Shown: one piece after another, positions 54,301 through 57,300 of the stretch
How positions within the stretch are numbered: the stretch's first letter is position 1
Layout of the letters: every line of letters begins with the position of its first letter
Source of the DNA: Phoronis australis
Lineage: Eukaryota > Animalia > Phoronida
Assembly (NCBI GenBank): GCA_002633005.1
Contig: NMRA01000676.1
Location: 92,658 to 156,657, forward strand
Reading direction: 5' to 3'
DNA: 64,000 nt
The notes under the pieces: model-generated
The model's input: the letters and a program-made list of their open reading frames with translations, nothing else
Databases searched by the model: none
What the model was told of the DNA's origin: nothing
Position numbers and translations under genes: made by a program

Positions 54301-57300
54301 AGTGGGCTTCGTTGATTTTTGCTGTGTGTCGGGTCTGGCTGGGGGCGTCGCTCACCGAGCATTACACTGGCAACTCTCATTGGCTCGTACTTTTTTTGTA
54401 GTGGTCTGCTGCTGACCAATAGCTATCCATATCTGTGAATATCTATTGTTAAATCAACAGATGAACATGAGTTAGGTTCAAATAAAGCTTACAATTTTTC
54501 TTGAAAGTCTTCAAGCCGAGTGACTTAAAATTTTCCATGCCAGTTGATGTATAGTCTTTATAGCTCTCACTGGAAGCATTGTGGTAGATTCAGCTCCCGG
54601 AAATACGTTTCTGAGTTTGATAAACTTGAATGCAACTGTAACTTTTCTGGTCAGTGAAAGGCTGATATTGTGTTGGTGGTAAGTATTCTTGAGGATGAGA
54701 TCCCATCTTAAGCACTCAGTGGCTCGGTGAGTGTTTTTGGTGTGGCACTTTGCGACTTACTTTTGATGTAGTGCTTAGTGTTGGGACGAGGCTGAGAGCA
54801 ACTACGTTTTGGAAGGTTTGGTTTGCTTACCTGTTGCATCACCTTTGTTTTTAACGAAAGCACTGTTGACAAAAGTAGATGCTAGTGCCCATCCGGTAGC
54901 CCGACACGCCCACACACATGCTCGCCAGCATTCATTGCACCATCAGCCATTTGATTGATACCTGTCATGTTGGTCGTTTTCCATGTGACTAACACGATCA
55001 TGTCTTATAATGTCTTAGGTGCATCGCGGGGATTTGCATTTGTGGAGTTTCATAACGTGCAAGACGCCCAGCGCTGGATGGAACAGAACAAGGTTTTATC
55101 TTCAATTCAATCTGTCTGTCTCTCGGTATAGTAGAACGCCGCGGCCATCACGTGCCCGGCAGTGTGGTCGTAGCCTGTGCTCGAATGACGACTGGCTCCC
55201 AGCGGAGTCGGTCGTCCTGGCCAGAGAACTCAGACCTTCAGCCGAAGTGTGAGGTTAGGCTAACTTAACTGAGCGTAGGCAGAAAACCCAGTGAATAGTG
55301 ACTGCGAGTGTGTGGGGGAAACGTGTGAATTTTGAACAAAATGTTTTGAATCACTTGCCAAACGCTTTAGTTTGTAATCTGGACACCCAATTTCTTCATT
55401 CATTACAACATCAAAGACCATGAATTTAAATTAAAATTATGTTGTTTTGAATAAAAAGTAAGGAAAGGGATTCCAACTATTTTTGGATTCCAGATTTTGA
55501 AGTGTTCAGGCAAAGCTAAATTTGAGCATTCAGTTATGATGGCGTGCATGTTTCAACCTATCCTGGTGTATGAATGATCATTGAATGTCTGAAGTGAAGG
55601 TGAACACCTCTATTTAAAGACTCGGTTTAAAAATTTAAGTAGATCTCAGTTTGTATCTTGGCCATGCCACTACAAATATGTCATGTAAGAGCAGAGAATC
55701 CATGTCTGGAGTTTTTTTTCTTGTAATTAACTTGGCATGAAAACAGATGGTCTTTGAAATACAAATCTGATGCTGTTCCGTGGTGTGAATACCACCTCTG
55801 TGTTAATTGATATCGGGGACTGGATTTTTCTGTATTAGTACATCACCATCAATTAATATGTCTTTGACAATTTCGAAACAAATGACTAGGTTTTCTTTCA
55901 GGTAATGAGGTCCCCTTACTGGCTATGCAACTGACAATAGTATGTCCTATGACAGTCTTGCTCCGAGTTTGCAAGAGCTGAAGAAGAGATTTCAGCTTTT
56001 ACCGTCATCACTTTGTTTTGCTATGAGTTCAGAAGGCTCGGAAATCTGGAGTCACTTGTGACGAGTCTTAAGATAATTCGAGCTACTTTGAAAAAGACAA
56101 CGGCAATCGATTTGATAACGGTAAAAGTTGATCACTAGTTTCTGAGATAGCAATTAAGTACCCGATCTTGGGCTTTGTTCTTTGGTCACCTTGTGGAGAA
56201 TCCTAAATAAATGGACTATGCCCTGAATAGTGGGCGGTGCCCTGAATAGTGGGCGGTGCCCTGAATAGTGGGCGGTGCCCTGATTAGTGGGCGGTGCCCA
56301 GTCGAAGCTGTCCATCTCCTCCATCTTTCAAGTGTGTCTCTTGCAGCTTTACTACTCCCACTGGAGTCCTAAGGTTATTTTCTTTTGTTGATGCGCGGTA
56401 AGCAGAGTTGGATCTGGTATAGTTACTCGTGTACTTTACCCTTGTCTTGTTTATTCCAGGGCCAGCTGTTCATTGAAGGTCAGCGGGTTTTCATGCACTA
56501 TAGCCACTCGCGCGAGCGTAATATGGAGCAGGGTGGGCCCGGAGGCGGGGCTGACACAAGGCATGACCCAAACAAGGGTGACTGGATCTGCTCAAAGGTG
56601 AGGTGAAACAAATTCATGTTGTTACACAAATGGTCGCCTTTACTTTGTTATGGACACTGTCATTCCTATGGTGACGTTTTGACAACTCTGTCAAAATACA
56701 CCGTAGATTTCGTTGTCATGACAGCTGGTGTCCTTTGTTTAACACGATGCTGGTGCTACTAAGTGCAGTTAGTAAATCCATCTTTACTTCAGCAATGCTT
56801 AGGAAATCTGTATACCATATTGTTCATCTACAGTCTAGATGTTGCTCACTTTTTATGTGCCCACATATTTATATGTGGACGCATTATGCCGTCATCGTCC
56901 GGGCGGCGTCCGTCCAGCGTCCGCTGCTCTATCTCCGAAACCCTTTGACATACGTTCATGAAATTTGTCACATATGCTCCAATCATGAATGGGATGGCAT
57001 GAGCGAACTTTCGGACGGATCAGACTACCGGTGTGCCCCTTAGTGGCAATTTTTGTTTTTATGCGCCCACATATTTATATGTGGACGCATTATTTACGCT
57101 TACCTTTGTATCTTCAAAAGTCCTGAACGGATTTTCGTGAAATTTGGTATGTAGGCACCTATTAGTGAGATGATGCTATCCTCCCGTTTTCGGATGGACT
57201 CGACGTAGTTTGCGCCACCTAGTGGCCATTTTTACTGTTTTCAAGTCTGTTTTTTTGCAACCACCCCTCTATCAACCAAACCGCTCAAAGAATGATTGTG

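Follow-up and report, generated by a model that had tools for sequence, protein, structure and literature searches.

Intron 5 of the RBM5/10 gene of Phoronis australis is retained in most transcripts, and 397 nt into it stands a consensus 5′ splice site (donor) that is predicted to lie in the loop of a long-range RNA helix. Such an internal donor recurs in homologous introns, as do a consensus branch point and a weak donor on intron 6. The gene lies in a stretch of 64,000 nt (contig NMRA01000676.1 of assembly GCA_002633005.1, positions 92,658 to 156,657 of the forward strand), here called the window, and all positions below are those of the window. The reading that we prefer, and hold tentatively, is that the helix-caged donor acts as a decoy that promotes detention of intron 5 and adds to RBM5/10 self-regulation. 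An original prediction, made from the letters of the DNA, had described most of this intron as structured and had drawn attention to a long interrupted hairpin, the rod, as a possible ADAR or Drosha substrate or retention signal. The element that is common to other animals is the inner helix with the donor it encloses, on which that prediction had not remarked.

The exons between 52945 and 60860 form a single open spliced frame that encodes an arginine/serine-rich part, a first RNA recognition motif (RRM1), a zinc finger and RRM2. The protein has Pfam matches to RRM_1 and OCRE, the zinc finger (DWxCxxC...CxxC) was recognised by eye in the spliced frame, and the RRM1-zinc finger-RRM2-OCRE layout expected of RBM5/10 is present. 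Named RBM5 proteins from invertebrates, molluscs among them, are 48-55% identical to it, and the closest named proteins (55-62%) are mostly molluscan; a protein search that used a single short exon gave no match. Judged by its protein sequence, the host gene is an invertebrate RBM5/10.

Retention of introns 5 and 6

Splicing was followed in three stranded raw RNA runs bearing the same species label (X6, X7 and X8), about 18-19% of each being examined. Splice junctions were counted at a threshold of at least 3 reads, and nonsense-mediated decay was not inhibited in these libraries. Introns 5 and 6 were covered at exon-like depth (about 4-24x in X6 and X7, matching the exons), while the sense coverage of intron 4 was 0. 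The spliced reads per run numbered 8, 9 and 8 for intron 4, 1, 6 and 0 for intron 5, and 3, 2 and 0 for intron 6. Reads lying just inside intron 5 stood to spliced reads as 10:1, 14:6 and 8:0, so that most reads keep the intron in all three runs. A contig from another study (X3), joined across intron 4, spans the whole of intron 5 at a depth of 138. Retention had been expected in the original prediction by comparison with human RBM5, and the three runs and the exon-joined contig bear it out. Among public contigs of other species, L015 still carries intron 6 after intron 5 has been spliced out. L021, from the same or a close species, keeps introns 5 and 6 with its later exons joined, and genomic intron loss is still conceivable there.

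In the names of RBM5 variants, '+5+6' denotes intron retention. Human variants RBM5+6 and RBM5+5+6 are named in PMC2174484, and PMC5737846 reports unproductive splicing of exon 6 of RBM5 and RBM10, in which protein bound in introns 5 and 6 goes with skipping of exon 6 and with decay. Human RBM5 exon 6 has the same length as the Phoronis exon, 74 nt (PMC6547761 Table 1), and the regions flanking exon 6 are reported as conserved in vertebrates (PMC5737846; PMC6547761). The Phoronis gene is like this system (PMC5737846; PMC6547761) in the gene concerned, in its frame-shifting 74-nt exon and in the flanking introns. It differs in that mammalian skipping works by protein binding, with no internal donor or helix described in the accessible portions of those papers, and in that retention dominates in Phoronis, where no exon-6-skipping junction was found at 3 or more reads in the three runs (decay not being inhibited).

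The internal donor and its predicted helix in homologous introns

Homologous introns were obtained by scanning metagenome contigs with a degenerate pattern of the 74-nt exon, which gave 58 loci, all with an RBM5/10-like exon; 36 of them hold a complete intron 5. Direct comparison of the window's introns 5 and 6 with the 58 loci gave chance-level matches only, and intron 5 is alignable with its homologues only at two motifs, the branch point and the internal GGTAAGT. For counting, 7 near-duplicates and 10 introns shorter than 300 nt were left out, giving 20 introns 5 (19 loci and the window). Donors were given a simple frequency-based score, with strong donors defined as those reaching at least 5.3, and 9 of the 12 control introns were taken from the window. 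The best internal donor was strong in 16 of the 20 introns 5, compared with 1 of the 12 control introns (rank test p 3e-5) and 0 of 13 introns 6. The branch-point motif YTAAC was found within the last 60 nt in 25 of 36 homologous introns, compared with 2 of 19 controls, and the weak intron 6 donor is shared by nearly all loci.

When the window's intron 5 was folded alone, the inner helix around the donor had pair probabilities of 0.97 (12 bp) and 0.88 (5 bp). All helix arms quoted in the original prediction are present at their coordinates and pair as written. Its call for a check of pair probabilities came out well for the inner helix and for the stems of the rod (0.79-0.98), and less so for the outer helix (0.57-0.82). 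Its view that most of the intron is structured did not hold. Confidently paired bases (p>0.8) make up 22% of intron 5 and 6% of the loop 54376-54715, and 4 of 20 shuffles of 54200-55000 were as stable as the real sequence (z -0.92); for 54320-54915, 3 of 100 shuffles were as good (z -1.82). Of 27 species variants in intron 5, none falls in the 71 nt of helix arms and internal donor (2.6 expected) and none in the last 69 nt of the intron (2.5 expected). These variant-free stretches are consistent with constraint, at small numbers.

The homologues were searched for helices by a method blind to the donor: among duplexes whose 5′ arm falls within the first 270 nt, the best in each intron was set against 12 shuffles. 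The set comprised 17 introns 5, three long introns being left out and L012 replacing L004. A best duplex at z <= -2.8 was found in 9 of the 17 (down to -14), in 2 of 13 controls, and in 0 of 15 further control intervals, which were kept from 18 after two that were intron 5 itself and one that was intron 6 of L016 had been dropped. Ten introns have z <= -2.2, and each of them places the internal donor in the helix loop, 5-195 nt upstream of the 3′ arm (chance product 7e-4). The predicted helices pair +53-96 with +350-392 in L009, +111-141 with +308-337 in L044, +208-248 with +549-592 in the bivalve-like L058, +45-74 with +248-274 in the arthropod-like L037, and +75-108 with +837-869 in L012; the arthropod-like L027, L020, L054 and L034 also have helices. 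L044 is a vertebrate RBM5, its exon being identical at 23 of 24 positions to an RBM5 chain in the PDB. In the alignable pair L004/L012, differences number 4/47 and 4/49 in the arms and 1/10 in the donor, compared with 226/521 in the middle. Closer groups show two arm changes, one each in L026 and L051, both from C-G to U-G. The helix is predicted to recur across lineages in place, not in sequence.

A donor-like motif, GGTAYAGT, stands in intron 6, 33-135 nt past its weak donor, in the window and in L009, L023, L029, L031, L056 and L058. It may be a U1 site with a bulge, or else another decoy.

Proposed mechanism, alternatives and known systems

We infer from these arrangements a mechanism in which U1 small nuclear ribonucleoprotein (snRNP) would bind the internal donor at 54679 and compete with the real intron 5 donor, thereby contributing to retention, while the predicted inner helix would loop out the internal donor and prevent its splicing. 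Together with the strong branch point, the weak splice sites around exon 6 would help to stall a transcript that holds introns 5 and 6. Transcripts parked in this way would undergo nuclear detention, or nonsense-mediated decay via the stop at 54399 (+117 of the intron), the first in-frame stop when intron 5 is retained. RBM5/10 output would be damped, probably under feedback by the RBM5/10 protein at the branch point. We propose this feedback because PMC5737846 describes binding in introns 5 and 6 together with decay and the skipping of exon 6, and because of the association of RBM5/10 with U2 snRNP (10.1101/2023.09.21.558883).

An alternative is that the internal donor does undergo splicing at a low level, serving either as a poison 5′ splice site or as the end of a poison micro-exon of 6-37 nt, with products that decay and a helix that represses its use in the manner of BRD2/BRD3. 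Use of the donor at +397 would include the stop at +117, and structure-repressed poison exons have a precedent (PMC11062102). Acceptor-like AGs 5-45 nt upstream of the internal donor beat background over 16 introns (combined p 0.003), and the 24-nt candidate in the window has an in-frame stop. However, no junction at 54679 was found among contigs or, at 3 or more reads, in the three RNA runs (10-20x depth, decay not inhibited). The acceptors are weak in at least five introns (L012, L023, L058, L005 and L027), and several candidate micro-exons are in frame and free of stops. Poison-donor use would by itself leave retention of 70-100% unexplained, and we regard this explanation as unlikely.

A little less likely again is that retention comes only from the weak exon 6 sites and from stalling of RBM5/10 at the branch point, the helix and donor being incidental, or serving to shorten the intron or to recruit U1 against premature polyadenylation. 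The weak intron 6 donor and the branch motif are more widely spread than the helix. RBM10 binds in RBM5 introns 5 and 6 near splice sites (PMC5737846), and RBM5/10 belong to the U2 snRNP at branch sites (10.1101/2023.09.21.558883). Against this explanation, the internal donor is a feature peculiar to intron 5, placed in a helix loop across distant lineages, an arrangement that needs selection on both.

Several observations weigh against the caged decoy. Intron 6 is retained equally without an internal consensus donor, and because of this the weak exon 6 sites could explain both retentions. A causal part for the donor or helix is at present put forward from prediction and comparison, and the RNA data come from libraries of unspecified type at low depth. 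The window's donor taken alone does not differ significantly from shuffles (p 0.10), and 3 of the 15 approximate control intervals also reach 5.3, possibly from missed exons. A strong internal donor is missing from 4 of the 20 introns 5, from the RBM10-like L016, and from 9 of the 10 introns 5 under 300 nt, only L050 having one; the short introns without it (81-259 nt) include L003, L007, L017, L033, L040, L041, L045 and L047. In the L010 group, exon 5 is absent and no strong donor was found within 3 kb upstream. By simple counts the excess of helices is modest (rank p 0.016; Fisher p 0.10-0.17), the thresholds were chosen after the data had been seen, and several loci are related and not independent. 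No clear helix (z above -2.2) was found in 7 of the 17 introns (L006, L019, L021, L023, L028, L032 and L002), with L021 and L032 having shorter helices of high probability at the equivalent position. Helix sequences are unalignable between lineages, and no two-sided covariation was counted. Finally, published decoys lie mostly in introns longer than 1 kb (PMC6097662), compared with 736 nt here and less than 1 kb in 16 of the 20 surveyed introns 5.

Among known systems, the proposed decoy resembles the decoy exons of SF3B1, OGT, ARGLU1 and SNRNP70 (PMC6097662; PMC7373989), in which a conserved cryptic site stands in a retained intron of a splicing factor and is rarely or never spliced. Those decoys, as described in these papers, are conserved in sequence from fish to mammals and have both sites mapped by junctions, whereas in Phoronis only a donor is clear, it lies in a predicted helix loop, and the layout reaches invertebrates without sequence identity. 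The BRD2/BRD3 poison exons (PMC11062102) likewise have complementary regions around an unproductive splice signal, which here are predicted. They differ in that the exon is demonstrably included and degraded, while here no inclusion was seen and retention is visible. The helix-enclosed internal donor common to distant animals is best described as a candidate variant of the unproductive-splicing controls already known. The main texts of PMC6097662 and PMC7373989 do not mention RBM5, nor do the searched supplements of PMC6097662 (one file excepted). In the literature on RBM5 intronic decoys, cryptic or poison exons and RNA structure, a caged donor was not found, a search that took in few subscription journals; genome-wide tables of cryptic exons or of conserved complementary regions may already include the human site without comment.

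A broader proposal goes with the caged decoy, and we advance it with less assurance as a possibility. Since the ancestor of vertebrates, molluscs and arthropods, intron 5 of RBM5/10 may have kept a switch in which a consensus donor sits in the loop of a long-range helix, its sequence wholly replaced in each lineage and its place and geometry kept. This switch would set the amount of detained transcript, and antisense oligonucleotides could release it in human cells. Both RBM5 and RBM10 regulate splicing and act as tumour suppressors; variants of their introns 5 and 6 have been on record for a long time, with no clear cis mechanism for retention. The donor-plus-helix element offers a precise target that is testable in human cells. 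If the proposal is true, decoy splice sites and structure-controlled unproductive splicing would be joined in one element. Such an intronic RNA architecture, maintained across bilaterian phyla while its sequence is not, would be a rare case, and one invisible to alignment-based screens.

The rod, feature coordinates and neighbouring sequence

The rod, whose ends were chosen by eye, folds at -49.6 kcal/mol (z -3.95, 0 of 200 shuffles as good). It is well predicted yet unexceptional for this RBM5/10 gene. A local z-scan of 52900-64000 gave 21 non-overlapping segments of at least 80 nt at z <= -3, of which 9, the rod included, were at or below -3.9, and fixed 150-nt windows across the rod reached a z of only -1.9 to -0.3. 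Its variant density is average (6 seen, 5.4 expected). Neither sequence likeness to the homologues nor a second copy within the window was found.

As X8 coverage is near zero over 54801-55000, the RNA data for the rod come from X6 and X7. They bear on the explanation that the rod is a functional element, an ADAR substrate whose editing keeps the transcript nuclear. The rod is a long and mostly paired duplex, and the check for A-to-G mismatches called for in the original prediction did return two low-share sites on paired As, 54759 (3/17 and 2/15 reads) and 54858 (0/13 and 3/11). Both changes are absent from the X1 and X3 contigs and may be alleles of pooled animals, and a variant that is not A>G (G>C, 3/19 reads) reaches a similar share. 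Three of the four rod variants at paired positions preserve a pair. The haplotypes fold at -46.6 to -57.3 kcal/mol, and one of them, at -54.3, betters the reference in a way matched by 1.3% of 300 random trials of five changes. Three of 9 homologues have a hairpin of at least 80 nt at the rod position with z <= -2.9 (L020 -4.3, L054 -3.2, L037 -2.95); in L058, L034, L044 and L027 such a hairpin is absent or weak. The restriction to two A>G sites at 13-27%, with hyper-editing absent, together with the average variant density, the lack of a sequence match to homologues and the retention of intron 6 as well, make this explanation very improbable. On the preferred reading the rod is an addition specific to the lineage, perhaps lightly edited by ADAR, and it is probably not the main element of intron 5. 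Two further A>G changes were rejected as editing and taken as alleles: 54872, which occurs with three further changes on a single haplotype, and 54942, which is present in all reads and in contigs.

The suggestion that the rod is a Drosha substrate fared worse. A primary microRNA has a regular stem of about 35 bp and a small loop. The rod is a long stem-loop within an intron, but its 146 nt form 52 pairs in nine short stems around a large terminal region, and it is polymorphic in both arms. Its best match to an Rfam microRNA scored 17.7 bits against a threshold of 92 (E 2.1). Across the window and 10 homologous loci, Rfam gave nothing at threshold and three matches at chance level by E-value. 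Neither Rfam nor the fold supports a microRNA or small nucleolar RNA identity, and a microRNA precursor is the least credible of the explanations, close to being dismissed.

Near the tip of the rod, CTTACCTG (54826-54833) could, by its complementarity, pair with either donor. Similar motifs were found in L044 and L056 only. A donor-complementary motif was rejected as a general feature, beating all 10 shuffles in 1 of 21 introns (L044).

Three variants fall within the 21 nt of the hairpin just after the intron 5 donor, and one of them disrupts a base pair; this hairpin is probably incidental. A predicted helix across exon 6 (54915-25 with 55304-14, p 0.79-0.88) was rejected because its 22 nt hold four variants, each of which breaks the pairing. 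Intron 6 contains a 13-bp hairpin at 55187-55216 (p 1.0), and hairpins at 55355-55514 and 55977-56152 (z -4.66 and -5.46) that exceed the rod. Intron 4 contains an inverted repeat at 54011-54134 with 34-nt arms that are 71% complementary (z -3.98), perhaps a transposon remnant. Because intron 4 is fully spliced with this repeat in it, such hairpins need not cause retention.

Table 1. Coordinates of features in and around intron 5 of the Phoronis australis RBM5/10 gene
Feature	Position	Strand	Remarks
Exon 5 equivalent of RBM5/10 (RRM1), 70 nt	54213..54282	+	open spliced frame; junction 53820-54213 in 8, 9 and 8 reads
Intron 5, retained, 736 nt, GT..AG	54283..55018	+	RNA depth exon-like; own splice junction present in RNA
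Hairpin of 8 bp after the donor	54295..54315	+	p 0.88; polymorphic
Outer helix, 5′ arm	54324..54334	+	p 0.57 with intron alone, 0.82 in 1.2-kb context; variant-free
Inner (caging) helix, 5′ arm, +67 to +87 of intron	54349..54369	+	duplex beats 25/25 shuffles; variant-free
Candidate micro-exon, 24 nt, in-frame stop	54655..54678	+	acceptor weakly supported, top 16% of background; no junction
Internal consensus donor, GT at 54679 (+397), candidate decoy, in inner-helix loop	54676..54685	+	counterpart in 16/20 homologous introns
Inner helix, 3′ arm	54717..54733	+	buries a second donor-like site, GT at 54727
Interrupted rod, 146 nt, 52 pairs (9 G-U)	54744..54889	+	candidate adenosine-to-inosine sites 54759 and 54858
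CTTACCTG, complementary to consensus donor, near rod tip	54826..54833	+	sole copy on + strand of 52900-64000
Outer helix, 3′ arm	54899..54909	+	pair probabilities as for 5′ arm
Consensus branch-point motif ahead of weak pyrimidine tract	54986..54994	+	YTAAC recurs in homologues; 54950-55018 variant-free
Exon 6 equivalent, 74 nt	55019..55092	+	skipping gives frameshift, stop 14 nt past junction
Intron 6, retained, weak donor (score -3.4)	55093..56459	+	exon-like depth; 3, 2 and 0 spliced reads
Donor-like motif GGTAYAGT, intron 6	55124..55133	+	7/36 loci including the window

Elsewhere in the gene, the intron after the short zinc-finger exon begins with GC at 58305 and is a GC-AG intron by the open frame. 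A direct repeat of about 70 nt at about 62839-62984 duplicates most of an OCRE exon plus its donor. Two stretches, at about 49760-51911 and 51912-53975, carry the upstream RBM5/10 exons in near-identical tandem copies that meet at a single N (51911); they are probably two haplotypes assembled in series. On the minus strand, 11167-11760 holds a single-exon gene like DRC12/CCDC153, with best matches of 57-62%.
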